Positions 7,267 to 60,612 of a DNA stretch of 64,000 nucleotides are shown here, one piece after another; position 1 is the first letter of the stretch; each line of letters starts with the position of its first letter. A model generated the notes under the pieces. It searched no databases, was not told where the DNA came from, and saw only the letters and a list, made by a program, of their open reading frames with translations. Both the position numbers and the translations under genes were made by a program. The stretch is from Arcobacter sp. (GTDB lineage: Bacteria > Campylobacterota > Campylobacteria > Campylobacterales > Arcobacteraceae). Location: positions 34,368-98,367 of the forward strand of contig PKUJ01000027.1 of the NCBI GenBank assembly GCA_002869565.1, read 5' to 3'.

Positions 7267-7983
7267 ATGCTCGATAAAAGAACAATAAAACTTGCTGTAT
7301 TGATTGATGCGGATAATGCCCAAGCTTCACTTGTAGCAGAATTACTTGCTGAGGTTGCAAAATTTGGTGTTGCTAGTATTAAAAGAGCTTATGGCGATTG
7401 GACTACTACAAATTTAAAACAGTGGAAAGAACATCTTAATAAACATGCTATTCAACCAATTCAACAGTTTTCTTATACCCAAGGAAAAAATGCCACAGAT
7501 GCCTCTTTGATTATTGATGCAATGGATATTTTACATGAAAATAGTTTAGATGGTTTTTGTCTAATCTCTTCAGATAGTGATTTTACAAGACTTGCAACAA
7601 GAATTAGAGAGTCAGGTTTGATAGTTTATGGATTTGGTGAGAAAAAGACTCCCGAGGCGTTTATTGCTGCTTGTGATAAGTTTGTTTTCACAGAGATTTT
7701 ACGTGAAAAACGAGATGAGGAAGATAAAGATGAATCCAATAATGCAGAGTTGAAACCTATGATTTCTTCGGCAATTAATGCAGTCTCAAAAGATGATGGC
7801 TGGGCTAGACTTTCAAATGTAGGAAGTTATATTAACAAAAATAACCCTTCTTTTGATTCACGTAATTATGGATATGATAAGTTAGGTAAACTAATAAGAA
7901 ATTTAAATTATATTGTTATTGATGAAAGAAAATTTAATGATGATTCTAACAATGTTCACATATATATTAGGATAAAAGATTGA
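7267..7983 (+). CDS. NYN (LabA-like) domain protein with C-terminal OST-HTH/LOTUS domain
   Basis: N-terminal NYN pattern (LAVLIDADNA ... ISSDSDFTRLATRIRESG ... YGFG). The C-terminal WARLSNVGSYINKNNPSFDSRNYGYDKLGKLI is typical of LOTUS. Confidence 0.75.
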   Translation: MLDKRTIKLAVLIDADNAQASLVAELLAEVAKFGVASIKRAYGDWTTTNLKQWKEHLNKHAIQPIQQFSYTQGKNATDASLIIDAMDILHENSLDGFCLISSDSDFTRLATRIRESGLIVYGFGEKKTPEAFIAACDKFVFTEILREKRDEEDKDESNNAELKPMISSAINAVSKDDGWARLSNVGSYINKNNPSFDSRNYGYDKLGKLIRNLNYIVIDERKFNDDSNNVHIYIRIKD

Positions 7984-8010
7984 TATAGGAGGATTATCCT
8001 CCTATATTTT
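7983..8010. terminator. bidirectional hairpin between convergent genes
   Basis: TATAGGAGGA-tta-TCCTCCTATA is a perfect 10-bp stem followed by TTTT. Confidence 0.6.
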
Positions 8011-47364: not shown

Positions 47365-49242
47365 TCAAAGGGATTTTTTATATAAAAGTTTCCCTTGCAT
47401 TTTATCATATTTATATATATCATCTCTAAATTGAAGCATTCCCTTTTCATCTATCCATGATGTTAAATATACAATATGAACTGGAATCTGTTTATTCAAA
47501 TCAAAGTCAGTTTTTTCAATATCATTTAAAATTTCTTTAGCTTTATCATAATTAATACTTGAATCTTCTTGGGCAATTGTTTTTAAAAGATCATACGGTT
47601 TTGATAATCTAATACATCCGTGAGAATAAGCTCTTTTATTGTTTTTAAATAATCCTTTAAAGGGTGTATCATGTAAATAAACGGAATATCTATTTGGAAA
47701 CATAAATTTAATTCTTCCTAGAGGATTTTTATCACTTGGTATTTGAATAAATCTCATTGGGGCTTCTTGGCTATTCCCTATTAAATCATTATTAATATAC
47801 ATATTCCAATCAACACTATCTGTATTATATTCCATTGATTTATGACTCCAATTTTCAAATACTTTTATATCACTAGTTGCTAAATAATTTGGGTCTTCAA
47901 CAAGTTTAGGAATAATCTCTTTTTTTACGATTCTTTGTGGTATTCTCCAATAAGGATTTAGAACAATTGAAGACATTTTATGACTAAAAATAGGCGTGGG
48001 ATTTTTGTACTCCCCAACAACTACTGCCATGTCTAATTTTAATTCGCCATTATTGTACATTTTTAATTTATAATCTGGAATATTGACTATTAGATATTTT
48101 TCACCTAATGATCTTGGCATCCATCTCATTCTTTCCAGATTTATTCTCATTTTTTTAATTTTTTTCTCAATTGGAATATTTAATCTTTTGATTGTATTTT
48201 TTCCAACAATTCCATCTTCTTTTAAACCATGATTTTTTTGAAAAGATTGTACAGCTTCAAATACATTTTGATCATAAAGTTCTAGACAGTCTTTTACAGG
48301 AGTTATTTGCTCTTTTTTTATCTCTATAACGGCTGTTAATTCATCAATTTTTTTAGTGCTAATTTGAGTCTCTTGTTTAAATAAATTATTTTGCTTTACA
48401 TCTACATTCTTTTCAGCACATTCTTTATTTAATAAATCTTTACTTTGGAAAAGTCTTTCTCTTAGTAGTTTAATCTCAGGATAATAGTTATCTTTTTTTA
48501 AAGATTCTTTTATAAGTGGTATTTTTACATAACCACCATTTCTTGCAATTTCTTCAAATTTCTTAATAAGATTTGATAGTTGTTCAGCTTTTGGGAAAGT
48601 ATAGTTAACTTTATTTATGGCAAGATTAATATCATCTTTTTCAATAGCTTCATAAAGTAGTTTTCTAATATTTTTTCTTAGCTTATATCTTCTCCAATTT
48701 GCAATTATTTCTTTTTTTTCATCTAGATTTTTTAATTCTTCTTGAAATGCTTTCCAATCGATAAAGCCATTTGATAAATATCTCATGTATTGATGATATG
48801 AACTTGTTAACATTATGTCAAGCATCATTAATTGTTCAATATTTTCATTTTGGGATTGACTATTTTCTATTTGTAAATTGATTTTTTCTAAATTAAAAAG
48901 TTTTTTTGAAAAAGGTTCTAATACTGAATCTTCATCAATTTTTTTGATAAGAGAATATGCAATTGGTTTTATTCCTTGGTAATTAATCCAAAAAGGAGAA
49001 TAGTTATGTTTTTTATAATATTTTTTTATAAGCCCTTTACTTATTAAAGTAGATGGATTTTTTTTTCTATTTAAAATATTTTTTAATATTTCTTTACTTT
49101 TTAACACAAAAATACTGTTTTTATCTGACATATTAATTTCTTGAATATTTTGTTCAATTACACTTTGTTCTATTGTAGTAATTGCAGCATTTAGCAAACT
49201 ACATGATATAAACAATCCAAATACAAAACTAATTTTTTTCAT
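47365..49242 (-). CDS. L,D-transpeptidase (YcbB-like) with peptidoglycan-binding domain
   Basis: PG_binding_1 (AVQSFQKNHGLKEDGIVGKNT) and the YkuD catalytic motif (LHDTP...SHGCIRL). Has a signal peptide. Confidence 0.8.
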   Translation of the reverse strand: MKKISFVFGLFISCSLLNAAITTIEQSVIEQNIQEINMSDKNSIFVLKSKEILKNILNRKKNPSTLISKGLIKKYYKKHNYSPFWINYQGIKPIAYSLIKKIDEDSVLEPFSKKLFNLEKINLQIENSQSQNENIEQLMMLDIMLTSSYHQYMRYLSNGFIDWKAFQEELKNLDEKKEIIANWRRYKLRKNIRKLLYEAIEKDDINLAINKVNYTFPKAEQLSNLIKKFEEIARNGGYVKIPLIKESLKKDNYYPEIKLLRERLFQSKDLLNKECAEKNVDVKQNNLFKQETQISTKKIDELTAVIEIKKEQITPVKDCLELYDQNVFEAVQSFQKNHGLKEDGIVGKNTIKRLNIPIEKKIKKMRINLERMRWMPRSLGEKYLIVNIPDYKLKMYNNGELKLDMAVVVGEYKNPTPIFSHKMSSIVLNPYWRIPQRIVKKEIIPKLVEDPNYLATSDIKVFENWSHKSMEYNTDSVDWNMYINNDLIGNSQEAPMRFIQIPSDKNPLGRIKFMFPNRYSVYLHDTPFKGLFKNNKRAYSHGCIRLSKPYDLLKTIAQEDSSINYDKAKEILNDIEKTDFDLNKQIPVHIVYLTSWIDEKGMLQFRDDIYKYDKMQGKLLYKKSL

Positions 49243-49458
49243 TAAATAACCTAGAAAATTTTTTTGAATTATAGTAAAATATTACTAATATTATACCCTT
49301 GATAATAAATTACTTGTTTAATATTATTAAATTTACAATATAAAAAATGCGCTTTTATAGAGCACTTGTATTATTATAATAGATTAAATTATGATTTAAT
49401 CTAAAATTAAGAATTGTATTGCTATAGTTAGTAATATAATTGTAATAAGGAGCCTATT

Positions 49459-50097
49459 ATGGAAGCGTTAAATTTAAATGCTTTTCAAAGTAATGCATAT
49501 GAAAATGTTGCAACACATAATCCTATTCATAACCCATTAGAGGGACATAAAAAGCATGATTCTGCAGAAATTGAGAGTAAAATCCATAATTCAGCAGTAA
49601 ATGTTTCAATCTCTATGGAGAGTATAAAAGTTTTTTTAAACATAAAAAGTGTTGAGTTATCTCAATCAAATGCTTCCGCACAGAATGTATTGATGAATAT
49701 TGTTAACAATACTGAAGTTTATGATTTCTTATCGGGAAAAGAACTTAAGGGTGGTTTTAGTTTAAAATCTATTGGGTATGATGGAAAACCAATTACAGAA
49801 CTATCACCTGCTGAAGCTAAAGAGTTAGTATCAGAAGGAGGATTTTTTGGAGTAAATGAGACATCATCAAGAGTTAGCTCTTTTGTTATTAATATGGCTG
49901 GAGATAATATAGAAGGATTACAAGAAGCTAGAAAAGGCATTGTTCAAGGATTTGAAGAGGCTGAAAAAATGTGGGGTGGAGAACTTCCTGAAATCTCTTA
50001 TCAAACACAAGCCAAAACATTAGAAATAGTTGATGCTAAAATTGCAGAACTTTTAAAAACTGATGCACAAAAAAAATCTGAAATTTCAGATAATTAA
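49459..50097 (+). CDS. hypothetical protein
   Basis: 212-aa ORF with no motif I can name with confidence. Confidence 0.45.
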   Translation: MEALNLNAFQSNAYENVATHNPIHNPLEGHKKHDSAEIESKIHNSAVNVSISMESIKVFLNIKSVELSQSNASAQNVLMNIVNNTEVYDFLSGKELKGGFSLKSIGYDGKPITELSPAEAKELVSEGGFFGVNETSSRVSSFVINMAGDNIEGLQEARKGIVQGFEEAEKMWGGELPEISYQTQAKTLEIVDAKIAELLKTDAQKKSEISDN

Positions 50098-50106
50098 GAA
50101 TGAATT

Positions 50107-50739
50107 TTAGTATTCTTTATATCTAATATTTTTTGATTTATCAAGACAGTCTAATTGAAAATCAACCATTTTCTTAAATGGTTTAGTAAATTCTGTTAAA
50201 CTATTTTTAGGTATATTTTCTAAATTATGCTTATTTAATAATTCTAATATATATTGTGTTGATTCTATTGTTGATAGACAATAACTAGCTGGTTGTTCTT
50301 TTATCTTAAATTCTGATGTTCTTGTACTTTGGAAGCTTACTTTTCTTAAATTCTTTAAATTTTTACTTTCTCTTATCATTTTTTTTGAACATGCCCAAGT
50401 TGAATCTATTATAAAAAGTACAATATTCTTTTTTGTTTGAATACTTTCTTGATTTAATTTTATACTATCATTTCCCGGATATAGAATAAAACATTCATTT
50501 TCTTTATTATTTAAAATTTCATTTATTTTATCATTATTTGTAAAGTTTATCCCAATAAATATTTCCGAATTTGTTAGCGATTTATTAGTAAAATGGCCAG
50601 TACCATTTTTTGTTTTTCTATACTCTTTAGGATGCATTAAAATTATAAATTTTGTATTTGTATCTATTGGTTTTATATATTTACACATACAACTAGTTTT
50701 TGGTCTATAACAAGTGTAACAAGTATCTCTTTGAATCAA
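50107..50739 (-). CDS. DTW-domain protein (tRNA-uridine aminocarboxypropyltransferase family)
   Basis: N-terminal Cys cluster (CYTCYRPKTSCMC) and the DSTW motif. Confidence 0.75.
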   Translation of the reverse strand: MIQRDTCYTCYRPKTSCMCKYIKPIDTNTKFIILMHPKEYRKTKNGTGHFTNKSLTNSEIFIGINFTNNDKINEILNNKENECFILYPGNDSIKLNQESIQTKKNIVLFIIDSTWACSKKMIRESKNLKNLRKVSFQSTRTSEFKIKEQPASYCLSTIESTQYILELLNKHNLENIPKNSLTEFTKPFKKMVDFQLDCLDKSKNIRYKEY

Positions 50740-50818
50740 TTTTAAATCTTTTTTTTTGATGTGATTATATTAAAAAAAAAGTTAGAATACGCCATATATA
50801 AAATATAGGAAGAATAAA

Positions 50819-51460
50819 TTGTTAGATATTACTCAAATGAGAAAAGAATATGCCAAAAAAGGTTTAAATGAAGAGGATTTAAATATAAATCCAATCAAAC
50901 AATTTGAGCTTTGGTTTAACCAAGCTATTGATGTGAATCTTAGAGAACCTAATGCAATGGTATTAGCAACAGTAGGAAATGATATGATGCCAAGTACAAG
51001 AACAGTATTATTAAAAATATTTGATGAAACTGGGTTTGTATTTTTTTCAAATTATAAAAGTAAAAAAGCAAGAGATATTGAACAAAATCCTAAAGCATCA
51101 GTTCTTTTTCCATGGCTTGATTTAGACAGGCAAGTAAAAATTGAAGGAAATATAGAGAAAATTAGCTCAAAAGCCTCTTTAAAATATTTTTTATCAAGAC
51201 CAAAAGGTAGTCAAATAGGAGCTTGGGTTTCTCACCAAAGTGAAGTAGTAAGCTCAAGAAGTATACTTGAAGCAAAATTTAATGAAATAAAAAACAAATT
51301 TGTAAAAGGTGAAATACCATTCCCTGATTTTTGGGGTGGATATATTTTAAAACCTACTAAAATTGAGTTTTGGCAAGCAGGGGAAGATAGATTACATGAT
51401 AGGTTTGTTTATACTTTTCAAGATGATAATTCTTGGAAAATTGAGAGATTGGCTCCATAA
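50819..51460 (+). CDS. pdxH: pyridoxamine 5'-phosphate oxidase
   Basis: Colinear with PdxH (PNAMVLATV, RTVLLK, FFSNYKSKKA, IEFWQAGEDRLHDR). TTG start. Confidence 0.85.
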   Translation: MLDITQMRKEYAKKGLNEEDLNINPIKQFELWFNQAIDVNLREPNAMVLATVGNDMMPSTRTVLLKIFDETGFVFFSNYKSKKARDIEQNPKASVLFPWLDLDRQVKIEGNIEKISSKASLKYFLSRPKGSQIGAWVSHQSEVVSSRSILEAKFNEIKNKFVKGEIPFPDFWGGYILKPTKIEFWQAGEDRLHDRFVYTFQDDNSWKIERLAP

Positions 51461-51470
51461 GGTTTATTTT

Positions 51471-51504
51471 AAAAAGCTAGATTCTAAGAAATCTAGCTTT
51501 TTTT
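51471..51504. terminator. bidirectional hairpin between pdxH and rtcB
   Basis: AAAAAGCTAGATT-ctaaga-AATCTAGCTTTTT is a perfect 13-bp stem. Confidence 0.65.
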
Positions 51505-52839
51505 ATATTTTTTCCCAGTATTATCTTTGATATTAATAAGTACTTTTACATGGTCTATAATTTCAACAAGATCTTCTTGTAATTTCATAACTTCAAAAAT
51601 ATCTTTATACGCAAAAGGTGCTTCATCAATTGTATTTTCATCAATAGTTCCTTTTATCCCTTTCATACTATCTTTAAACTCTTGCATATTAATATTTGTT
51701 TTAGCTTTTTTACGACTCATTACTCTTCCTGCCCCATGGGATGATGAATTTAATGAATCATTACAACCCTTTCCTATTATTATAAAAGAACCATCTCTCA
51801 TATTTCCAGGTATAACTCCTGTCATATTTTTTTGAGCATCTGTCGCACCTTTTCTATGTATCCATTCTTTTGTGGATTCATTAAATTGGACATGGTTATG
51901 GTTTCTATTAATAAATTTTTTTTCATCTTCATAATCTATTTTAGAATTGCTATTTAAAGTAGAATTTAATATATTATGAATTACATTAATCATCTTTTTA
52001 CGATTTTCAAGTGCATATTCTAAAGCAAAATTTTGATCTTTTATATAATCTTTTCCTAGTTGACTATTGGGGTTAAGTTCCCATGTACCTTCCATTTTCT
52101 CTATATCTATTTTTTTATTAAGCTCTAAAATATTTTTATGTTTTACTTTTAAAAGACTTTTTTGAAAAGCTTCTGGATTATTTGATTTGTATTGTAAATT
52201 TCTTTGTGTGTACTCTTCTACAATTTTTTTTAACTTATCCTCATGTTTATTTTTATCTAGATAGGCTTGAATCATATAGTGTGAAGCAATTTTATGCCCA
52301 AAACCACGACTACCAGAATGTATTACAATCCATACTTTATCATCTTTTCCATATCCAATTTCTATAAAATGATTTCCTCCTCCTAATGTACCCAATTGCT
52401 TAAGTCCTGAGGTATTTAATAAATATTGAGCATAATCCGTTAACGGTAAATCTAATTTTAATGATTGGTGATTTTTGTGAGTTTTAGATCCAAGTGGAAT
52501 CTCTTGAATAATCTTTTCATAAATTAAATCTGCATTTTCTTGTATATCTTTTTTATAAAAATCAGTTTTGTATGCACACATTCCACAACCAATATCAAAC
52601 CCCACAAAGGCAGGTATTACAGCATCTTTTGTAGAACAAACTGCTCCAATTGGCATTGAGTAACCCGCATGAGCATCAGGCATTAATGCTGCATAAGTTA
52701 CAAATTTTTGATTCAATACTTCATAGAATTGTTCTTGTGAAATTTCATCTAATACTTCAGCATAAATTTTATAGTCTGTATGTGTTTCTTGAAATTTTTT
52801 ATGATTAATTTCATAAAAACCAAATTTTTTTAAATCCAT
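51493..52839 (-). CDS. rtcB: RtcB family RNA 3'-phosphate/5'-OH ligase (long paralogue, 448 aa)
   Basis: Has FDIGCGMC, GGGNHFIEIG, HSGSRGFGH and HGAGRVMSR. Confidence 0.85.
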   Translation of the reverse strand: MDLKKFGFYEINHKKFQETHTDYKIYAEVLDEISQEQFYEVLNQKFVTYAALMPDAHAGYSMPIGAVCSTKDAVIPAFVGFDIGCGMCAYKTDFYKKDIQENADLIYEKIIQEIPLGSKTHKNHQSLKLDLPLTDYAQYLLNTSGLKQLGTLGGGNHFIEIGYGKDDKVWIVIHSGSRGFGHKIASHYMIQAYLDKNKHEDKLKKIVEEYTQRNLQYKSNNPEAFQKSLLKVKHKNILELNKKIDIEKMEGTWELNPNSQLGKDYIKDQNFALEYALENRKKMINVIHNILNSTLNSNSKIDYEDEKKFINRNHNHVQFNESTKEWIHRKGATDAQKNMTGVIPGNMRDGSFIIIGKGCNDSLNSSSHGAGRVMSRKKAKTNINMQEFKDSMKGIKGTIDENTIDEAPFAYKDIFEVMKLQEDLVEIIDHVKVLINIKDNTGKKYKKS

Positions 52840-52868
52840 AATTTCTCCTTATTTTTAATGACAAAAGA

Positions 52869-52903
52869 ATTATATATTTACCTTTGGTCATATTTTGTCC
52901 AGT
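52869..52903 (-). promoter_or_regulatory. candidate promoter of the long rtcB with an upstream shared 18-nt motif
   Basis: Minus strand: ACTGGACAAAATATGACC, an 11-nt spacer, then TATAAT, about 29 nt before the ATG. Confidence 0.4.
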
Positions 52904-52910
52904 ATAAGTT

Positions 52911-53642
52911 TTAATTTTTAGGCATTTTTTTAAAAGAGAATTTATCAAATCCTTTAGATTGTAGTAAATATTTATCTTCTATTTTTATAGTCTCATTTTC
53001 CATATGATTTATTTCTCCTAGATACATAGAAATTTCTTGAAATGCTTCCATTGGATTTTTTATTTGAATAAATTTATAATTTTTTAGTATGGGATTTGAA
53101 ATATATCTAAATTTTAGTTCAAAACTTTTATACTGTTTTCTCTCAATTTTTTGATAATATTGTTCTGCAACAAAATAGGGTATTTTGTGAAGATTGAAAA
53201 GATCAAATAACCCCTTATATTCAATTTCTTTAAATTCTTCAAAAATTTTATATATGAACTTTGATTTGTCCCATCTATATTTTTGTAGTTGTTCAATTTG
53301 ATTCATATTTAAATGTTTAAGAAGAGAATCGATTATACTTTTTTGAGTAAAACAAAACTCTTCAAAAATTAGTTTTTTCGAATATTGTTTATTCTCTTTT
53401 TTTATTTTATATATCTCAATTTTTATAAATGGATATATCTTACCACAAAATCCTAAGAAATTAAAATAAAATTCTATTTCAAAAAATTTAAAATCTTTAA
53501 TGTAGTTAGTTTTAATAGAGTTTGTTTGTATTTTTATATTTGATTTAATCTCTTTTTCTACTCTATTAAATCTTAATTTTTCATCAATACCATAAGCTAG
53601 ACCTATATCATAATAATCACTAAATTTTGAGATGATTTTCAT
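52911..53642 (-). CDS. hypothetical protein embedded in the rtcB/prfH operon
   Basis: 243-aa ORF. Its ATG overlaps the prfH stop (TAATG). No recognisable motif. Confidence 0.5.
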   Translation of the reverse strand: MKIISKFSDYYDIGLAYGIDEKLRFNRVEKEIKSNIKIQTNSIKTNYIKDFKFFEIEFYFNFLGFCGKIYPFIKIEIYKIKKENKQYSKKLIFEEFCFTQKSIIDSLLKHLNMNQIEQLQKYRWDKSKFIYKIFEEFKEIEYKGLFDLFNLHKIPYFVAEQYYQKIERKQYKSFELKFRYISNPILKNYKFIQIKNPMEAFQEISMYLGEINHMENETIKIEDKYLLQSKGFDKFSFKKMPKN

Positions 53643-54232
53643 TATATTTGTTCCTTAAAATCTGAACCAATAAAGATTTTTCTTGGATTACCTCTTTGTA
53701 TTTCTTTTTTCTTTTTCCATAAAGAGTGTTGAATTCTATTGCTTTGATTCTGTATTTTTTTTTCATATTTTTGAATTAAAAGATCAAGAGCAATGGTTTT
53801 ATTTCTATGTTGACTTCTTTGAGAATATGAAATAGCCTCAATATTAAACTTTGGATAAACAGCTCGTACACCGCTAGATGTTGTATTTACATGTTGCCCT
53901 CCATTTTTTGGACTTTTCATAGTTTGATAAATAACTTCTTTTTTATTAAACTTTTCGTTTTTATTCTCTTCATAATATTCTAATGAAAAATACCAATTCT
54001 TTCTTTTGCATTTAGGTCGAAAAGGACTTGTAGACTTCCAAAGATGTATCCCTTCTAAGTGCTTAAATCGTTTGTCATCACTTTTTAAAAGGATAGATTT
54101 ATAGCAATTGTGAAATGATTTTTCAACTGAGATAATTTCAAAACTATAGTTTTTTTCTAACCACTTGCTAAAATGCCATAATGCTCTACATACTTCATCT
54201 ATGCCATTACCACTACTAATATATATATACAT
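53642..54232 (-). CDS. prfH: peptide chain release factor H-like protein
   Basis: 196 aa. GGQ motif in an RF-1-domain context (SPKNGGQHVNTTSSGVRA) and no codon-recognition domain. Directly downstream of the short RtcB. Confidence 0.8.
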   Translation of the reverse strand: MYIYISSGNGIDEVCRALWHFSKWLEKNYSFEIISVEKSFHNCYKSILLKSDDKRFKHLEGIHLWKSTSPFRPKCKRKNWYFSLEYYEENKNEKFNKKEVIYQTMKSPKNGGQHVNTTSSGVRAVYPKFNIEAISYSQRSQHRNKTIALDLLIQKYEKKIQNQSNRIQHSLWKKKKEIQRGNPRKIFIGSDFKEQI

Positions 54233-54235
54233 CAG

Positions 54236-55297
54236 CTACTCCTTATATGTAAGGATAGGTTTAAATGTAGCGATAACAGTTGCCAGTCCTGCATCTACTA
54301 AATCATTTATAACAACATCAATATTTTTATAAACTTGAGGTGCTTCTTCATAAAGTAACTTTTTATCTTTGCAAAGTACACGTGAACCTATTGACGTACG
54401 CTCTAAACTATCTTTAGTATAATGGTTTTTTAGTTTCTCTTCAGCTGAGCTTCTTTCCCATTTCCTTCCCGCACCATGAGCTAAAGAGTAATTAGATTTT
54501 TTTGTGTCATCTGTTGGCATAACAAGGTAACTGAGAGTCCCTCTACTTCCAGCAATTATAACTGCACCTTTATTTGTAGGAGTTGCACCTTTTCTATGCA
54601 ATAAACCATCTTTTGTTTTTTCAATACTATTGTGTGCTGTATCACTTACATATTTTAAATTAGACTCTAGTTTTATAGCTTTGAGTAATCTTTTTGCTAT
54701 TTGTTGACGACTTTTTTTTGCATATATAATTGCTTTATCATGCTCTTTTAAATAACTACTTGCTTGAGTAATAGATAAACCCTCATTTGGATTGTATTGT
54801 CCAGCTACTTTATCAAATATAATCTGTCCAAATGCACGAGAACCGCTATGAACTAAAGTATAAAGTGAATTTTCATCTAAACTTAATTGTTTAAAAAGCA
54901 TATAATCTTTAATCTCATTTACAAGATGTAACTCAGCAAAATGGTTCCCTTTTCCTATAGTTCCTAAATGGTATCCAAGTGATGGTTCATCTATATCAAT
55001 ATCATCTAAACTTTCTATCTTTGAAAGAGCTTTTACAAATTTTGATACTTTTATTTTTTTAGCTTTTAATGGTACCTCAAATAGGCTCATTCCACATCCT
55101 ATATCTCCACCTATTAGATGTGGATAGATTCTATCTTCTGTTAGTATTGCACTGCCATTAGGGACAAACCCTATACTTAAGTCTGGTAATCCGACTACTT
55201 TTTTTACACCTTTAAATTGTGTAATATTTTTTAATGTTTCTACGCTTCTAGTATCAATCCAGTTTTTCTTTGAAGCGATGATTGTTAAATTGTCCAT
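54236..55297 (-). CDS. rtcB: RtcB family RNA ligase (short RtcB2-type paralogue, 353 aa)
   Basis: Has GGDIGCGMS, GKGNHFAELH, HSGSRAFG and HGAGRKW. There is a 3-nt gap to prfH. Confidence 0.85.
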   Translation of the reverse strand: MDNLTIIASKKNWIDTRSVETLKNITQFKGVKKVVGLPDLSIGFVPNGSAILTEDRIYPHLIGGDIGCGMSLFEVPLKAKKIKVSKFVKALSKIESLDDIDIDEPSLGYHLGTIGKGNHFAELHLVNEIKDYMLFKQLSLDENSLYTLVHSGSRAFGQIIFDKVAGQYNPNEGLSITQASSYLKEHDKAIIYAKKSRQQIAKRLLKAIKLESNLKYVSDTAHNSIEKTKDGLLHRKGATPTNKGAVIIAGSRGTLSYLVMPTDDTKKSNYSLAHGAGRKWERSSAEEKLKNHYTKDSLERTSIGSRVLCKDKKLLYEEAPQVYKNIDVVINDLVDAGLATVIATFKPILTYKE

Positions 55298-55364
55298 TAT
55301 TTCTCCATGGTTTGTTATTTTTGTTTTGTGTATTGTGTTGATTTAGTTTTGTTAATGATTTCAT
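55254..55364 (-). CDS. candidate 36-codon leader ORF overlapping the rtcB2 start
   Basis: AAGGAG lies 6 nt before the ATG. Translates to MKSLTKLNQHNTQNKNNKPWRNNGQFNNHRFKEKLD*. It ends 44 nt inside rtcB2 in another frame. Translation is unverified. Confidence 0.3.
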   Translation of the reverse strand: MKSLTKLNQHNTQNKNNKPWRNNGQFNNHRFKEKLD

Positions 55365-55393
55365 ATGTGACTCCTTATTTTTTTATTGAAAAG

Positions 55394-55428
55394 ATTGTAT
55401 AATATTTTTATGACGTATTCTGTCCAGT
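55394..55428 (-). promoter_or_regulatory. candidate promoter of rtcB2-prfH with the shared 18-nt motif, overlapping a divergent plus-strand -10 box
   Basis: Minus strand: ACTGGACAGAATACGTCA, an 11-nt spacer, then TACAAT. A plus-strand TATAAT at 55398-55403 would place the motif at about +1 to +18 of the WYL operon. Confidence 0.4.
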
Positions 55429-55452
55429 TTTAAATAAAGGGAGTATTTTATT

Positions 55453-55983
55453 TTGAAAACTAAATTTTATCCAGTACACTATAGATTAAATAAAAAGAAT
55501 AGGTATCTTATTTTAGAAATAGATGATGAGAATGAAGATACATTTTATATTGATAAAAAACTTATTAAAATTCCTGTTTTTACAGAATTAAAATTTTTAA
55601 AACAATATGCAAAAAAAAGAGATATAAAAGTGGTAAAAGACTCTGAACCTATAGTGCATAATTTAGACATAGTTTTGAAATGGATAAAAAAGAATGCTAA
55701 AGGTAAAATTGAGTGTACAGACATCTTAACTGTTTGGAATTTTTTTATTGATATGGCAAATACTTTTGAGCTTGATAATGATGAATTACAAGCATATCGT
55801 AGTAAAGCTGTAAAAGCATATAAAGTATATGAAAAAGTTTTTATTGGCACGAATTTACCTAGTGTAACTCAAAATAATCCACCATATCACCCAAAATTCA
55901 ATTCAAAAGAGTTAAAACTTATTCAAAGAGTACTTACTTATGGATATAAAAAATTTAAAAAGAAACGAATAAAAATAAAATGA
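55453..55983 (+). CDS. hypothetical protein (first gene of the WYL operon)
   Basis: 176-aa ORF with a TTG start. AAGGGAG lies 9 nt upstream. Confidence 0.5.
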   Translation: MKTKFYPVHYRLNKKNRYLILEIDDENEDTFYIDKKLIKIPVFTELKFLKQYAKKRDIKVVKDSEPIVHNLDIVLKWIKKNAKGKIECTDILTVWNFFIDMANTFELDNDELQAYRSKAVKAYKVYEKVFIGTNLPSVTQNNPPYHPKFNSKELKLIQRVLTYGYKKFKKKRIKIK

Positions 55984-56303
55984 AAAACATCCTATTCATT
56001 TGTAGCCGTAACCAATGGCGAAGTCCTACGGCTGAGAAAATATATAGCAAAGATGATCGTGTCAATGTTCGCTCGGCCGGAACAAGTCCAAGTGCAAGAA
56101 AAACAGTCAATGTGAAAGATATAGAATGGGCAGAACTTATTTTCGTGATGGAGCACAAGCATAAAGAGAGGCTTAAATCTACCTTTTCTAGACAACTACA
56201 ATATAAAAAAATTATTGTCCTTGATATTTCTGATGAGTATCGGTATATGGATGAAGAATTGGTAAAATTGTTAAAAACATCAGTAGAGGAATACTTAAAA
56301 TGA
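55980..56303 (+). CDS. small low-molecular-weight phosphatase (LMW-PTP/ArsC fold) family protein
   Basis: CX5R(S) loop ILFICSRNQWRSPTAE. 107 aa. Overlaps both neighbours by 4 nt. GC is visibly higher than the surroundings. Confidence 0.7.
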   Translation: MKNILFICSRNQWRSPTAEKIYSKDDRVNVRSAGTSPSARKTVNVKDIEWAELIFVMEHKHKERLKSTFSRQLQYKKIIVLDISDEYRYMDEELVKLLKTSVEEYLK

Positions 56304-56848
56304 AAAATATCCCAACAGAAACTTTATTGGAAAATTTCGCTCAATGTGTTGATGATGAAGAAAATTCTAAATACAATAAAAATCGTAGATACTTAAATGC
56401 TAAAAAAAGACGTATAGAATATGAACTTAAAAGTCGTGGTTTTGAAAAATGGCAGATATCTGAAAAGGCTGATGAAATTATCAAAGAGCGTGAAAGTGAG
56501 GCAGTAGAATCCAATGATGAGTGGATTATGCCATCAAAGAAAAATCTCAAATCACGTATCATGTATATAGAATATAAAGGTGGTGGCATATTGGGTGATG
56601 GACGTATAGGTAGAGTTTATTTTTCTAAGTCTGGTAAAAGCTTATATTATGGCGATAAACGATTTTCTAGTTTAAAAGGTAATGGATACAAATCTAATTA
56701 TTATGATGTAGATACAGGGGAAGAATACTGGATTAGTGGTTTCAAAAAAAATCAAAGTGACAAACTCTATGGTGGCAATAAAGGTGTTGAAATAGATGAT
56801 GATGTCAAAGAAGAGTATTTAGATATCATAAATGGAAAAAATAATTGA
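56300..56848 (+). CDS. hypothetical protein
   Basis: 182-aa ORF. The conserved-looking C-terminal half is GRIGRVYFSKSGKSLYYGDKRFSSLKG..YYDVDTGEEYWISG. No family name known to me. Confidence 0.5.
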   Translation: MKNIPTETLLENFAQCVDDEENSKYNKNRRYLNAKKRRIEYELKSRGFEKWQISEKADEIIKERESEAVESNDEWIMPSKKNLKSRIMYIEYKGGGILGDGRIGRVYFSKSGKSLYYGDKRFSSLKGNGYKSNYYDVDTGEEYWISGFKKNQSDKLYGGNKGVEIDDDVKEEYLDIINGKNN

Positions 56849-57759
56849 GCCAAAAATCTAGACTATACCGAACCATCGAAATCCTAAAAGAGCTAAATGC
56901 CGGTAAAAAACTTTGTGTAACTAATCTAGCTACAGCATATGAAGTAAGTGATAGAACTATACGAAGAGATTTTGAACTTATAAAAGAGATTTTTGGGGAC
57001 TTTGTGAGCAAAGAGGGGGAGTGTTATCAAGCGTATCAAAAAGTGTTGCTTGAAGAGGTGCTAAATGCTACAGATTTGATGACATTAGCAAATATAGTCA
57101 ACTTGTTTGGTATTACACAAAAAGAGTCTCTTATCTCTGATAAAACAGAGGCACTAATAAAGCAGTCAATGAGTGTATATGACTTTAAATCTCGCCCTTT
57201 TGAGAGTATGAAGAATATTGATATAATAAAAAAACTTGAACATGCAATTAAGTTTAATAAAGAGATAAAAGTAATATATCAAACAGAAAGATCAAATACA
57301 AAAAGAACATTTCATCCTTATAAGATACTTTTTTTAAATGAAAATTTTTATTTAGTTGGTGAAAATATTTCAAAAAATTGTTTTGAATTTTTAAGAATAT
57401 CAATGATTGTAGAGCTTATATTTACAAAAAGAACATTTCATGAACATTTGGATATAAAAGAGTTTATAAAAAAACTTCAAACACCCTGGGCTGCCTTTGG
57501 AAATAATGATATTATTGTAAAACTTAGAGTTGATGTAAAAATAAGAAGATTTTTTTTATTTAAAAAATATCTTCCAAGTCAAGAGATAATACAAACTTTT
57601 GAAAATGGTGATATTCAAGTAAATTATACGGTAACTAATTTGCGAGAATTAGATGAGTTAGTTATAAAATGGCTTCCTAAAATACAAATAATAAGTCCAA
57701 AAGGACTTGAAAAAATGATTAAAAAGAAGTTGCGGCTTAAATTGAAAGGATTTAACTAG
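56845..57759 (+). CDS. HTH + WYL domain transcriptional regulator
   Basis: N-terminal wHTH (LYRTIEILKELNAGKKLCVTNLATAYEVSDRTIRRDFELI) and a WYL core (FHPYKILFLNENFYLVGE). TTG start overlaps the upstream stop. Confidence 0.8.
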   Translation: MSQKSRLYRTIEILKELNAGKKLCVTNLATAYEVSDRTIRRDFELIKEIFGDFVSKEGECYQAYQKVLLEEVLNATDLMTLANIVNLFGITQKESLISDKTEALIKQSMSVYDFKSRPFESMKNIDIIKKLEHAIKFNKEIKVIYQTERSNTKRTFHPYKILFLNENFYLVGENISKNCFEFLRISMIVELIFTKRTFHEHLDIKEFIKKLQTPWAAFGNNDIIVKLRVDVKIRRFFLFKKYLPSQEIIQTFENGDIQVNYTVTNLRELDELVIKWLPKIQIISPKGLEKMIKKKLRLKLKGFN

Positions 57760-57769
57760 TTCATAAGAT

Positions 57770-58246
57770 TTATTTCTTATGACCAGTTTGTCCTTTTCTT
57801 TCAAGTAATTCTTCACAATTTTCTCCACCTATATCATAAGCTTCTCCGAATCCAAAGATTGCTTCACCTGATTTTGGTGTAAATTCATAGATAGAAAAAT
57901 CTTTCATACTCTTTAGCATTTTCATTGTTGAACCTTGCTCTTTTTCAAAAATTGATATTAGATTATCAAATTCTTTAGTATCTCTTGGTAGTTTTACTGA
58001 TGTTGATTGTAAAACAACTCTTTTTCTTCCAAAGATATTTTCGCATGAAATTTCATCTTCTATAAAAAACAAAGCAACATTATTGTTTGCATCTAAGTTT
58101 CTTGTATGTCTAGCCATAGCGCTAATATAAACGTAGTATTTATTCTCATTTTTTATAAATGGTGCATAACTTGTAAATGGCAGATTATCTTCATCTATTG
58201 TTGATAAAACTACACTTTTGAAATTTTTTAAAAATTCTTCTAACAT
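57770..58246 (-). CDS. PNPOx-like FMN-binding split-barrel protein (HugZ/HutZ-like)
   Basis: LSTIDEDNLPFTSYAPF...VALFFIEDE pattern. Start chosen at MLEEFL (GGGAGG 7 nt upstream), whose ATG overlaps the upstream TAA (TAATG). Confidence 0.65.
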   Translation of the reverse strand: MLEEFLKNFKSVVLSTIDEDNLPFTSYAPFIKNENKYYVYISAMARHTRNLDANNNVALFFIEDEISCENIFGRKRVVLQSTSVKLPRDTKEFDNLISIFEKEQGSTMKMLKSMKDFSIYEFTPKSGEAIFGFGEAYDIGGENCEELLERKGQTGHKK

Positions 58247-60612
58247 TATATTTCCTCCCATAATAGAGATATTTTAACATTATAAATATCTTTTCTCCTT
58301 AGTTTTATGAAAGTCTCTTCAATTTCATAGTTCGAGATATGATACTCTTCATTGATTTTTTTAATTTCATCTTCAAGTTTTTCTTTTAGGTTTTCTATAT
58401 CTGCTGAAATTTCTTCTATTTCTGCTTCAACAAAAGCTACATCTTTTTTCTCTTTTAAAACTTTTGATACATTTTTTACCCCACTTGCTGCTTTACCTAC
58501 ATTTGTTTTACTTAATATTGAGTTACCAAAAAAAGCCCCTAATATTGAGGAACCAATAGAAATAAGTGTATCAGTTGTTTTGGCACTTGCCTGATCTTTC
58601 TCTTTTTCTAATTTAACATATAATCTATCAAGTTTTGTTTCTAAGCTATCTTTTTCTTTTTCATACTTTAATTGAAGTTTTTCGATATTTTCATCAATTG
58701 CTTCATTTAATCTATCTTGTACTCTAATTTTAAAATCTGCTAAGTTCTCATCTTGTTTTGAGGTGAGTTTTAATGCAGAAATTGTATGTAAGGTAAGTTT
58801 ATGATTTTGATATATTAAATTTATAAATTCTCTTTGTAAAGATTTTAATTCTCTAGCATTTTGAACAAAAGTAGGAATATTATAGTATGAAGAGTTTGCT
58901 CTTTCATTTTTTGAAAAATCAAAATTTTCTAGTTCTTCTTTATCCTCCCAATTAACATTTGAATCTGTTTCATCTAAATATATTTTATGTAAAATCTGTT
59001 TTTTTACATCTATTTTTTTTGTTGCATTATAAAAATTTAAATCACAAGAAGCAAGTAAGTATGGCTGCATTTGATAAGAGTCTTGTTGTGAAATATATGA
59101 AAAATTTTCTTCTAAATCATTTGGTAAAATAGGTTTACTTGATGATGAATCATTTGTATTTGTTTTATTTGATGAAGTTGCTACAACTTCTGGTTTTTTT
59201 AAAGCCTTAGCTATTTTATCTGCCATAAGTTTTTTAATATCATCTTTTGAAATAGGACCTTTTAAATATGATAAAACCCATCTAGTTTGAAATACTTTAA
59301 TAGCATCTTCATGAATATTTTTCATAATAAAGTTTCTTTTATTTAAGTTTGAAAGCATATCCATTAGCTCTTTTTTATCAAACTTTACCTTTCCACTTGT
59401 TGCTAATCCATCTATTACTTTCTCTTTATCTTGTTTTGTTTGAAGACGTCCAATGAACCAAGTACCAATGTTTGCTAAACCTTTATAATCTATGTCCACA
59501 GGGTTTTGAGTTGATAATATAACTCCAACTCCAAAGGATCTAGCTTGTTTTAGAAGTGTAAGCATTGGCTGTTTTGATGGGGGATTTTTTGAAGGTGGAA
59601 AATAGCCAAATATTTCATCCATATAAAGTAGGGCTTTAAGGGAAGAAGTTCCCTCTTGTCTTCTCATCCAGGCAACCATTTGATTTAGTAATAGTGATAC
59701 AAAAAACATTCTTTGTGAATCATTTAGATGTGAAATAGAGAAAATAGAAACTCTTGCTTTTCCATTTTCATCATATAATAAATTAGAGATATCTAAAGGC
59801 TCTCCCTCAATCCAAGACTTAAAAGATGGATTTGCAATAATTGTATTTAGTTTTAGTGCAAGTTTTAATCTATCATCTTGTGCAAAAAATGTCTCTAAAT
59901 CAAATACTCCAATTTTTTTAAAAGGAGGAGTAACTATTGAAGAGATTAATTCTTCCAGATTTAAATCTTTTCCTTGGCTATAAAAGTTCATAAAAATAGA
60001 AGATACTAAAATATGCTCTTTTGACGATGTATTATCTTTGATATCCACAAGTGATAAAAGTGAAGATACTGTTGAATTAACAAGCTGATTTAAAATATCT
60101 GCATCTTCTAACACCTCTTTTGAAGGAGCTTTAAAAGAAGAAAGAACAGAAACAGGAACACCTGCTGTACTTCCTGGTGTATATATTGTAAAATCAGCAC
60201 TATTTTTTAGTTTAGAAATTCTCTCTTTACTTTGAAAGTCACCAGTGATTCCATTTTCCCACAAAGTTGCAGTTTTTTGTGCAAGTTCAGCTTTAGTCAT
60301 AGAGTTATTTATCGCGTCTTGTTCTTCAACCCACGGTTCAAAATCACTTCCTTTTAACTCTGGAAAAGTTAAAAGGAGGTTCCCCATATCTCCTTTTGGA
60401 TCAATTATAATTGAAGGTATATTATCAATAGCAGCTTCTTCAAGTAGTGAAATTCCAAGCCCAGTTTTCCCACTTCCTGTCATACCAATTATTGCAGCAT
60501 GTGTAGTTAAGTGTTTGTTTTTATATATAACTGGGATTGATTCTTCATCATTGATTTTTTCTTTTCCTATATAAAAAAGTTTTAATTTTTCATAATCAAA
60601 TGTGCTACTCAT
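58246..60612 (-). CDS. HerA/FtsK-superfamily P-loop NTPase (DUF87/DUF853-like) with long coiled-coil C-terminal extension
   Basis: Walker A IIGMTGSGKTG, Walker B ALLYMDEIFGYF, plus ILSTQNPVDIDY. The C-terminal ~300 aa are coiled-coil with one hydrophobic segment. Confidence 0.7.
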   Translation of the reverse strand: MSSTFDYEKLKLFYIGKEKINDEESIPVIYKNKHLTTHAAIIGMTGSGKTGLGISLLEEAAIDNIPSIIIDPKGDMGNLLLTFPELKGSDFEPWVEEQDAINNSMTKAELAQKTATLWENGITGDFQSKERISKLKNSADFTIYTPGSTAGVPVSVLSSFKAPSKEVLEDADILNQLVNSTVSSLLSLVDIKDNTSSKEHILVSSIFMNFYSQGKDLNLEELISSIVTPPFKKIGVFDLETFFAQDDRLKLALKLNTIIANPSFKSWIEGEPLDISNLLYDENGKARVSIFSISHLNDSQRMFFVSLLLNQMVAWMRRQEGTSSLKALLYMDEIFGYFPPSKNPPSKQPMLTLLKQARSFGVGVILSTQNPVDIDYKGLANIGTWFIGRLQTKQDKEKVIDGLATSGKVKFDKKELMDMLSNLNKRNFIMKNIHEDAIKVFQTRWVLSYLKGPISKDDIKKLMADKIAKALKKPEVVATSSNKTNTNDSSSSKPILPNDLEENFSYISQQDSYQMQPYLLASCDLNFYNATKKIDVKKQILHKIYLDETDSNVNWEDKEELENFDFSKNERANSSYYNIPTFVQNARELKSLQREFINLIYQNHKLTLHTISALKLTSKQDENLADFKIRVQDRLNEAIDENIEKLQLKYEKEKDSLETKLDRLYVKLEKEKDQASAKTTDTLISIGSSILGAFFGNSILSKTNVGKAASGVKNVSKVLKEKKDVAFVEAEIEEISADIENLKEKLEDEIKKINEEYHISNYEIEETFIKLRRKDIYNVKISLLWEEI

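Follow-up and report, generated by a model that had tools for sequence, protein, structure and literature searches.

A candidate WYL-controlled RNA-repair island with two separable RtcB modules in Arcobacter sp.

We analyzed a 64,000-nucleotide (nt) stretch of DNA from an Arcobacter sp. metagenome-assembled genome, an identity supported by an exact protein match (contig PKUJ01000027.1, positions 34,368 to 98,367; hereafter the window), in which four adjacent minus-strand genes encode, in order of transcription, an RtcB paralogue (RtcB2), a release-factor homologue (PrfH), a protein that we call X, and a second, long RtcB (RtcBL). On balance, and with moderate confidence, we favour a reading of these sequences in which the locus is a modular anti-ribotoxin RNA-repair island that is controlled by a WYL-domain regulator and carries two separable repair modules. 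Across the related loci the backbone of WYL regulator, operator and leader upstream open reading frame (uORF) is constant, while the cargo varies.

The four-gene cluster and its two modules

The genes of the cluster and the hairpin at its end are as follows (aa, amino acids).

51493-52839, minus strand: long RtcB (RtcBL), 448 aa; Pfam RtcB, 286.9 bits; PHROG family phrog_1075, E=3e-113
52911-53642, minus strand: X, 243 aa; member of phrog_4243, a family to which no function is assigned
53642-54232, minus strand: PrfH, 196 aa, short class with no C-terminal tail; Pfam RF-1, 55 bits, with GGQ
54236-55297, minus strand: RtcB2, 353 aa, PrfH-associated RtcB paralogue; Pfam RtcB, 199.7 bits, and both NCBIfam models
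51471-51502, strand not assigned: terminator-like hairpin with a 13-bp stem and T-runs on both sides, on the long rtcB stop codon

The list of open reading frames (ORFs) and the sequence itself agree with the initial annotation on the four minus-strand ORFs, their lengths, the 3-nt gap between rtcB2 and prfH, the single base shared by the prfH stop codon and the X ATG (TAATG) and the 71-nt spacer between X and long rtcB. The identities that it had proposed for RtcB2, PrfH and the long RtcB were upheld by profile searches against Pfam (RtcB, RF-1) and NCBIfam, in which X had zero matches, and the matches reflect strong homology rather than chance ORFs. RtcB2 exceeds the cut-offs of NCBIfam NF007153 (419 bits, cut-off 407) and TIGR03073 'release_rtcB' (374 bits, cut-off 272), and groups with the Alysiella RtcB2 in a clade of its own in a neighbour-joining tree. 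Its gene lies directly upstream of prfH in the same orientation, a layout that we found in 10 related loci. The top NCBIfam model for PrfH is TIGR03072 prfH at 138 bits, under the cut-off of 166.65, which marks this protein as a divergent member. Among PDB entries it is closest to two solved PrfH structures, 9mor and 7sa4 (E about 1e-21), with RF2 reaching only 1e-9. Its GGQ motif reads NGGQHVN, and the protein is of the RF-1 domain type that lacks release-factor domain 1 and falls in the PrfH class that PMC12829566 defines as short and tail-less.

The intact metal and GMP-His motifs that had been claimed for the long RtcB are present: aligned to P. horikoshii RtcB, the protein keeps DIGCG, GGGNHF, HSGSR, HN and HGAGR. 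It thus has all the catalytic motifs of the 3′-phosphate RNA ligase that we predict it to be. In the neighbour-joining tree its clade is sister to Grimontviridae phage RtcB and stands apart from both the RtcB2 clade and the RtcR-linked RtcB, and it is ∼43% identical to RtcB from phages of Proteus and Cronobacter. It lies outside any rtcA or archease context, which the initial annotation had named as an example of a setting that would speak against its reading. The GC content across the island is unremarkable and no other phage genes were seen within it. None of the four genes match PADLOC defence models, where the sole match was the regulator described below, through its WYL domain (E=8e-18 against the WYL models), plus a marginal AriA match (E=0.0044); apart from these regulator matches, PADLOC lends no support to the anti-phage role suggested in the initial annotation. 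Pfam searches of the four genes and six scanned neighbours found no RtcR, Sigma54_activat or RTC cyclase, and the window proteins scanned for TROVE (Ro60) had no match. The hairpin at 51471-51502 faces the convergent pdxH gene and marks the end of the island.

To compare the cluster with related loci (L numbers), we gathered loci with probes for X, for the regulator and for a phosphatase-like protein of the regulator operon, and searched all window proteins against every locus by tblastn. All four genes stand in the same order in the window, L003, L008, L010, L011 and L154, and L004 holds all four in a rearranged form, with long rtcB beside the regulator and unrelated flanking genes. The four genes are joined by the WYL gene in the window, L003, L008, L011 and L154; the L010 contig is short and stops without reaching a regulator gene. 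The doubt attached to the initial annotation, that the genes might not be syntenic in relatives, is thereby answered by seven Campylobacterota loci, and the four-gene combination occurs in at least three different genomic contexts. However, the combination is not obligate. X, long RtcB and the WYL regulator occur without RtcB2-PrfH in five Sulfurovum-type loci (L006, L007, L009, L156 and L157), while rtcB2-prfH occurs with the WYL operon and without X or long RtcB in L170, a complete Halarcobacter chromosome, and in L171 and L172. In these three loci the rtcB2-prfH unit has the same leader, and in L170 it faces the same operon of u176, phosphatase-like protein, u182 and WYL regulator and ends at a terminator-like hairpin (identified by eye). 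Because each module also occurs alone, the four genes amount to two cargo modules joined together; the earlier idea of an expanded module therefore stands insofar as the genes recur as a unit, and has to give way to two separable modules insofar as they part. That annotation had also missed the WYL regulator, the operator and the leader uORF, to which we now turn.

A shared operator, a leader reading frame and a divergent regulator operon

The control elements lie upstream of rtcB2 and in the spacer upstream of long rtcB.

55411-55427, minus strand: operator 1, CTGGACAGAATACGTCA, in promoter P1 (55399-55428)
55399-55404, minus strand: P1 −10 box TATTAT, with a 16-nt spacer from the −35 hexamer TGGACA
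52886-52903, minus strand: operator 2, CTGGACAAAATATGACC, in the 71-nt spacer, upstream of a TATATAAT −10 box; promoter P2 for long rtcB
55254-55364, minus strand: leader uORF, 36 codons, MKSLTKLNQHNTQNKNNKPWRNN..., with an AAGGAG ribosome-binding site

The spacers upstream of rtcB2 and of long rtcB have in common the motif ACTGGACA(g/a)AATA(c/t)G, and the left half of operator 1, TGGACA, doubles as the −35 hexamer. The 17-nt operator pattern has two exact matches in the window; tolerating as many as two mismatches raises this to three, against 0.35 expected. Aligned spacers from eight other loci gave the palindromic consensus CGGACAaAATAyGTCC, which in every case ends ∼11 nt before a TATAAT-like box. 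We then built a position weight matrix from 15 sites and applied a cut-off of 14 bits. The matrix finds exactly two sites at or above this cut-off in the 64-kb window, both at the promoters (operator 2 scores 25.2 bits), and on loci outside its training (L154, L156, L157, L160, L162, L164, L168 and L170) the sites that it picks out lie precisely in front of the first gene and of RtcBL. In the RtcR-type locus L155, which is described below, the matrix finds no operator site. A generic sigma-70 scan performed no better than shuffles in this AT-rich DNA and was used only for the overlap between the half-site and the −35 hexamer.

Since the same operator precedes both transcription units, the sequence argues for their co-regulation. 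The regulator gene and the operator occur together in more than 15 loci, and because of this co-occurrence the WYL protein is a candidate binder of both operators. The placement of the operator over the −35 hexamer suggests repression by occlusion.

A third copy of the operator, with a TATAAT box, follows directly after the WYL gene in two related islands (L006 3135-3440 and L008 6545-6864, both minus strand). Downstream of it, ∼250 nt of non-coding sequence contain tRNA-like modules in tandem (T-arm GGTTCGAATCC, D-arm-like); this region matches the Rfam tRNA model at 37.8 bits, and ARAGORN calls no tRNA in it. The Rfam model for the Y-RNA-like YrlA matches in L006 at 42.6 bits (E=3e-8), under the 69-bit gathering score, and the fold z-scores of the region are −4.5 in L006 and −0.6 in L008. 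These features suggest a WYL-controlled Y-RNA-like RNA that has no accompanying Ro60 protein. In the window, no Y-RNA-like or tRNA-like RNA was found with Rfam at gathering or E-value thresholds (positions 49000-60000), with ARAGORN or with a T-arm pattern. In L169 (about 7900-8000, on the strand opposite the WYL gene; contig GC content 40%), a distant WYL homologue (42% identity) diverges from an operator-like GTGGACGGAATATGACA, which is followed by a leader with a T-arm-like hairpin, GGTGGTTCAAATCCACC (identified by eye, with no Rfam match), a 191-aa gene and a split RtcB.

The second element shared between loci is the uORF. In the window its start lies 67 nt before the ATG of rtcB2, relative to which it is in the +1 frame, and its end lies 44 nt into that gene. 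All 15 loci with P1 have a uORF with an AAGGAG-type ribosome-binding site, its ATG 59-63 nt from the operator start. It is 32-47 codons long and extends past the start of the first gene, covering that gene's ribosome-binding site and start codon and ending 35-68 nt into its coding sequence, and this layout is the same whether the first gene is rtcB2 or X. The spacing between the uORF ATG and the main ATG, measurable in 14 of the 15 loci, is 55, 58, 61, 64, 67, 73, 76 or 82 nt, values that are all 1 mod 3; the spacing thus shifts in whole codons, indicating that the reading frame is being preserved. The equivalent ORF was called as a gene by independent gene callers in L154, L157, L171 and L172. 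The peptide itself is poorly conserved. Compared with local proteins it is enriched in Gln (4.5-fold), Asn (3-fold), Arg (2.9-fold), Thr (2-fold) and Lys (1.6-fold), enrichments whose statistics are overstated because the sequences are related to one another. Our working hypothesis is that the uORF serves as a regulatory leader.

Four plus-strand genes diverge from rtcB2 and end with the regulator.

55453-55983, plus strand: u176, 176-aa protein, first gene of the regulator operon; recurs with the regulator in L159 and L170-L172
55980-56303, plus strand: mini low-molecular-weight (LMW) phosphatase-like protein, 107 aa, with the CX5R(S) loop CSRNQWRS; the commonest companion of the regulator
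56300-56848, plus strand: u182, 182-aa protein whose C-terminal domain of ∼110 aa belongs to a widespread small-protein family
56845-57759, plus strand: HTH(DeoR-like)-WYL-WCX regulator, 304 aa; candidate binder of both operators

The regulator has the WYL-type architecture of a helix-turn-helix (HTH) domain followed by WYL and WCX domains (HTH_DeoR, 30.8 bits; WYL, 32 bits; WCX, 22.3 bits, just under the cut-off of 23.9), and no solved structure of a relative was detectable by sequence. The 107-aa phosphatase-like protein lacks the C-terminal third of normal LMW protein tyrosine phosphatases. Its family (2,930 matches) is 70-94% identical and far more conserved than the accompanying repair genes. 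In a Cocleimonas (Gammaproteobacteria) contig, the phosphatase-like gene directly adjoins a homologue of X (L049, 1-469). The C-terminal domain of u182 has 585 matches with ∼60% identity across phyla and no Pfam model. The predicted structure of u182 is confident (predicted local distance difference test score, pLDDT, 86.8), and it yielded no fold match in the PDB and no informative match in the fold search. Several NCBI records name the family of this domain '1-deoxy-D-xylulose-5-phosphate synthase' (DXS), which is probably a propagated mis-annotation.

Two sets of neighbouring genes recur around the island. A gene for a DTW-domain protein lies two genes away (50107-50739, minus strand) and is kept in the same flank of L003; DTW-domain proteins are a family of tRNA aminocarboxypropyltransferases, and here the gene probably reflects ordinary synteny rather than a part of the system. 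On the other side (57770-60612, minus strand), a 163-aa PNPOx-like gene overlaps the end of the gene for a 788-aa protein. This pair also flanks the L003 island, where the homologue of a gene of the pair has DUF87/HerA matches.

X, an abundant family tied to RNA ligases and phage tRNA genes

The X family is conserved over its full length of about 215-280 aa, and nearly all members are stand-alone proteins. A profile search of 1.84 billion representatives returned 8,016 clusters, defined at 50% identity, at E<=1e-3. Across 354 diverse members, eleven positions (D9, Y10, Y11, D12, D20, R27, C66, Q202, D223, D233 and S236) are 86-99% conserved, and a basic C-terminal tail is present in many. Because these residues are near-invariant, an active site or a fixed ligand site describes them better than a fast-evolving inhibitor would. 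The AlphaFold model of X is confident (pLDDT 88.9; predicted template modelling score, pTM, 0.81). Foldseek found no relative of this model in the PDB (best E=0.02, TM below 0.3) and uncharacterised phage proteins only in BFVD, while PDB sequences searched with a profile and 47 members scanned with Pfam gave no match. We also considered whether X could be an archease and rejected this candidate: neither X nor the 47 members match PF01951, and there was no PDB match by sequence or fold.

In bacterial genomes, RtcB lies within 10 kb of X in 14 of 65 loci, distributed over at least four lineages (Campylobacterota, Alysiella, Lewinellaceae, and Capnocytophaga with other Flavobacteriaceae). In Alysiella the order is RtcB2, X, a 100-aa protein and PrfH. 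A different setting is seen in L155 (2798-9905), where a homologue of X (40% identity) follows RtcR, RtcB (425 aa), a tRNA-Met gene and a Band_7/SPFH gene, and is itself followed by two unknown proteins; this is a canonical context of RtcR, a sigma-54/CARF regulator. A Band_7 protein also follows RtcB in Proteus phage Privateer (L072).

A divergent X subfamily with the same N- and C-terminal motifs occurs in Capnocytophaga and other Flavobacteriaceae (L062-L071, of which L063 is C. gingivalis ATCC 33624). It lies in a same-strand array of RtcB (463 aa), ankyrin, SUKH-1, DUF4272, X, a 205-aa unknown protein, MscS and SUKH+HEAT that looks like a poly-immunity locus, and in L062 PrfH is encoded just upstream of RtcB. 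A gene for an MscS-type channel stands one to three genes from X in L006, L018, L040, L043, L062, L065, L066, L071, L156 and L157, a recurrence across Campylobacterota and Bacteroidota that may be coincidence. In L018, X is cut to 90 aa (608-880), through decay or an assembly error.

We also analyzed 80 IMG/VR loci of X, many of them on contigs of more than 100 kb and up to 527 kb. A tRNA gene lies within 8 kb of phage X in 43 of 68 unique loci, within 1 kb in 21 and within 200 nt in 13, and 346 of the 356 tRNA genes near phage X are on the same strand as X. The homologue from the cultured Stenotrophomonas phage DLP_6 lies inside the tRNA array of that phage. A T4 Rnl1-type RNA ligase is encoded 2-6 kb downstream of X in nine of 66 unique viral loci, and RtcB is present in two. 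On one 182-kb contig (L074, 8001-14884), X sits inside an array of 13 tRNA genes and the next gene encodes an ATP-dependent ligase; ∼6 kb downstream there is a PrfH-like ORF (27% identity over 166 aa), and a phage-encoded PrfH of this kind would be unusual. In a phage-like region of Saprospiraceae, X stands between an RNA-repair HAD domain (HAD_SAK_2) and a CCA-type nucleotidyltransferase. Since X accompanies ligases with opposite end requirements, its role would be independent of the end chemistry. On tRNA-like RNA, X might serve to recognize the substrate, to trim nucleotides or put them back, or to clear adducts.

Proposed mechanism, alternatives and significance

The gene identities, the synteny, the modularity, the conservation of operator and uORF and the genomic associations of X were all computed directly; what the proteins do biochemically, which of them binds the operator, whether it represses or activates, what signal induces the genes and how the uORF acts are inferred, as follows. 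Module A, consisting of the leader uORF, rtcB2 and prfH, would by homology release ribosomes that have stalled after cleavage of the 16S ribosomal RNA (rRNA) in the decoding centre, and religate the rRNA. Module B, consisting of X and the phage-type RtcB with its own promoter, would repair broken tRNA-like substrates: RtcBL would seal 2′,3′-cyclic-phosphate or 3′-phosphate ends to 5′-OH ends, and X would most likely be an enzyme, or a tight partner of the RNA or ligase, that recognizes or prepares the broken RNA. The division of labour suggested in the initial annotation, with one ligase for rRNA and another for tRNA, would be compatible with the modularity and with the phage-type affinity of the long RtcB. 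The HTH-WYL-WCX regulator, as a dimer, would bind the palindromic operator on the −35 hexamer and spacer of both promoters and repress them until its WYL domain binds a damage signal, upon which repression would be lifted. By analogy with other WYL and CARF sensors, this signal may consist of nucleic-acid fragments. A translational layer of control would come from the leader, whose translation passes over the first gene's own ribosome-binding site and start codon, and expression could in this way be linked to the stalling of ribosomes: those that translate the leader would block the main start site, which a stall near the beginning of the leader would leave open.

A wider claim can be attached to this scheme, though we offer it tentatively and give it clearly less credence than the island itself. 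Here X would be the founder of a very large unnamed enzyme family whose fold has no relative in the PDB and which acts as a general partner of RNA ligases (RtcB and Rnl1) in phage and bacterial tRNA repair, and, separately, the WYL regulator and the ribosome-traversed leader would make up a new circuit of two layers by which ribotoxin damage is sensed and the repair of both rRNA and tRNA is turned on.

Several observations weigh against the reading as a WYL-controlled repair island. With respect to control, co-occurrence is the sole link between the WYL protein and the operator, and the WYL contigs L158, L161, L163 and L165 carry neither operator nor ligase within their short span. An operator at the −35 hexamer would also fit PafBC-like activation, and the richness of the uORF peptide in Gln, Asn, Arg, Thr and Lys could come from A/C-rich nucleotide bias rather than from sensing. 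With respect to X, its predicted model shows no recognizable catalytic fold, 51 of its 65 genome loci have no RtcB within 10 kb, and in Pyrinomonadaceae it follows a transketolase-like gene. In phages, tRNA genes are only ∼1.6 times as dense close to X (within 2 kb) as they are farther out (beyond 5 kb), and the tie to tRNA arrays could just reflect where phage accessory genes cluster. Finally, there are broken copies: in L157 (10133-10330) all that is left of long rtcB is a fusion of its start to its C-terminus, in L156 (2616-3948) the gene is split, and rtcB2 is split in L008 (8474-9401), which suggests weak selection in some lineages, or assembly errors.

Among the alternatives, the one that survives best, though we consider it unlikely, is that X is a non-catalytic cofactor of RtcB-type ligases, either an archease-like activator or a subunit that targets tRNA-like substrates to the ligase. 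A cofactor could explain why X adjoins RtcB in several lineages under two regulators, WYL and RtcR, why many members have the basic tail and why phage X is associated with tRNA genes. However, X also stands beside the mechanistically unrelated ATP-dependent Rnl1 ligases and mostly has no ligase nearby, RtcB2-PrfH goes with the same regulator and no X in L170, and the invariant acidic cluster of X is more like an active site.

Slightly less probable still is that X is an inhibitor or immunity-type protein that neutralizes an incoming RNase toxin, so that the island would pair neutralization with repair. This reading draws on the arrays of Capnocytophaga and other Flavobacteriaceae, in which X is on the same strand as the immunity families SUKH-1/SMI1_KNR4, ankyrin, DUF4272 and HEAT, and on Sulfurovum islands that have HEAT, Sel1 and DUF1835 proteins beside X. 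Immunity proteins, though, are mostly fast-evolving and specific to one toxin, whereas X keeps ∼11 near-invariant polar residues over the 354 members compared and comprises ∼8,000 clusters. In addition, it is common in phage tRNA arrays and beside RNA ligases or RNA-repair enzymes; no toxin gene adjoins X in the window, and X has no Pfam Imm or SUKH match. We downgraded the immunity reading because of the invariant polar residues and the phage tRNA and ligase contexts.

The least probable of the three, that a phage-derived X-RtcB cassette landed beside an independent rtcB2-prfH operon with no coordination and that the adjacency has little functional meaning, is suggested by the phage origin of the closest characterised relatives of RtcBL and X (phrog_1075 and phrog_4243), by the separate occurrence of the two modules and by the decay of some island copies, but is opposed by an operator that stands at a fixed distance from the −10 box before both units at every locus and with any cargo, by the overlap of the prfH stop with the X start (TAATG), by an island that has neither other phage genes nor a GC anomaly, and by the persistence of the four-gene combination in at least three different genomic contexts.

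Comparison with known systems places the modular repair island at the meeting point of several of them. Ribosome rescue and religation of 16S rRNA are established for RtcB2-PrfH of E. coli (ATCC 25922) and Capnocytophaga gingivalis, and rtcB2-prfH has been described as a two-gene operon for which no regulator is given (PMC1586002, PMC9304027, PMC9223846, PMC12829566). As in that operon, rtcB2 here stands immediately upstream of the gene for a GGQ release-factor homologue that lacks domain 1, in tight same-strand coupling. Unlike in that operon, X (with the TAATG overlap) and then a second RtcB follow, a conserved leader uORF, a WYL-type regulator and an operator are present, and PrfH falls under the TIGR03072 cut-off.

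The known regulation of RtcB runs through RtcR/CARF (PMC7790460, PMC4012209). The island resembles RtcR-RtcBA and the Salmonella rsr-yrlBA-rtcBA locus (PMC7790460) in that an RtcB ligase stands under a dedicated regulator thought to sense damaged RNA. The likeness extends to the related islands L006 and L008, which carry a tRNA-/Y-RNA-like non-coding RNA under the same operator, and among the loci of X, L155 is a true RtcR-RtcB context. In contrast to both systems, the window has no RtcR (sigma-54/CARF), RtcA or Ro60 (TROVE); an HTH-WYL-WCX protein at sigma-70-type promoters takes the place of RtcR, and the ligase belongs to a phage-like clade.

Among WYL factors, BrxR/CapW repress defence islands, while PafBC and DriD activate DNA-damage genes. 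The regulator described here is like these factors in its domain order HTH-WYL-WCX, in a gene that diverges from its presumed targets and in the palindromic operator at the promoter, and unlike them in its cargo, which consists of RNA-repair genes rather than anti-phage or DNA-repair genes. X recalls RlaP, the RNA-ligase-associated Pol-beta nucleotidyltransferase (PMC12776372), in being tied by neighbourhood to the unrelated ligases RtcB and Rnl1, and recalls both RlaP and T4 Pnkp-Rnl1 in being tied in the same way to phage tRNA provision and tRNA repair; unlike RlaP, it has no Pol-beta or other recognizable fold and no Pfam model. In the literature searched, the RNA-repair neighbourhood catalogue of Burroughs & Aravind (2016) aside, no paper links a WYL regulator to RtcB or PrfH. 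What appears to be new here is the regulatory backbone, the composite layout and the uncharacterised partner family; the repair enzymes were already known.

To our knowledge, RtcB2-PrfH is the only system that reverses ribotoxin damage to the ribosome. The locus offers a concrete control circuit for this pair, comprising a regulator, a defined operator and a leader ORF, and it shows that the ribosome-repair pair and a further ligase module are combined in nature. This operator-plus-leader circuit and the X family, an abundant 'dark' family that is common in large phages beside tRNA genes, are the two strongest leads. X is thus a candidate for a missing component of RNA repair, or of the conflict between phage and host over tRNAs, and if it is true that X acts enzymatically on RNA ends, the known RNA-repair toolkit would be extended.

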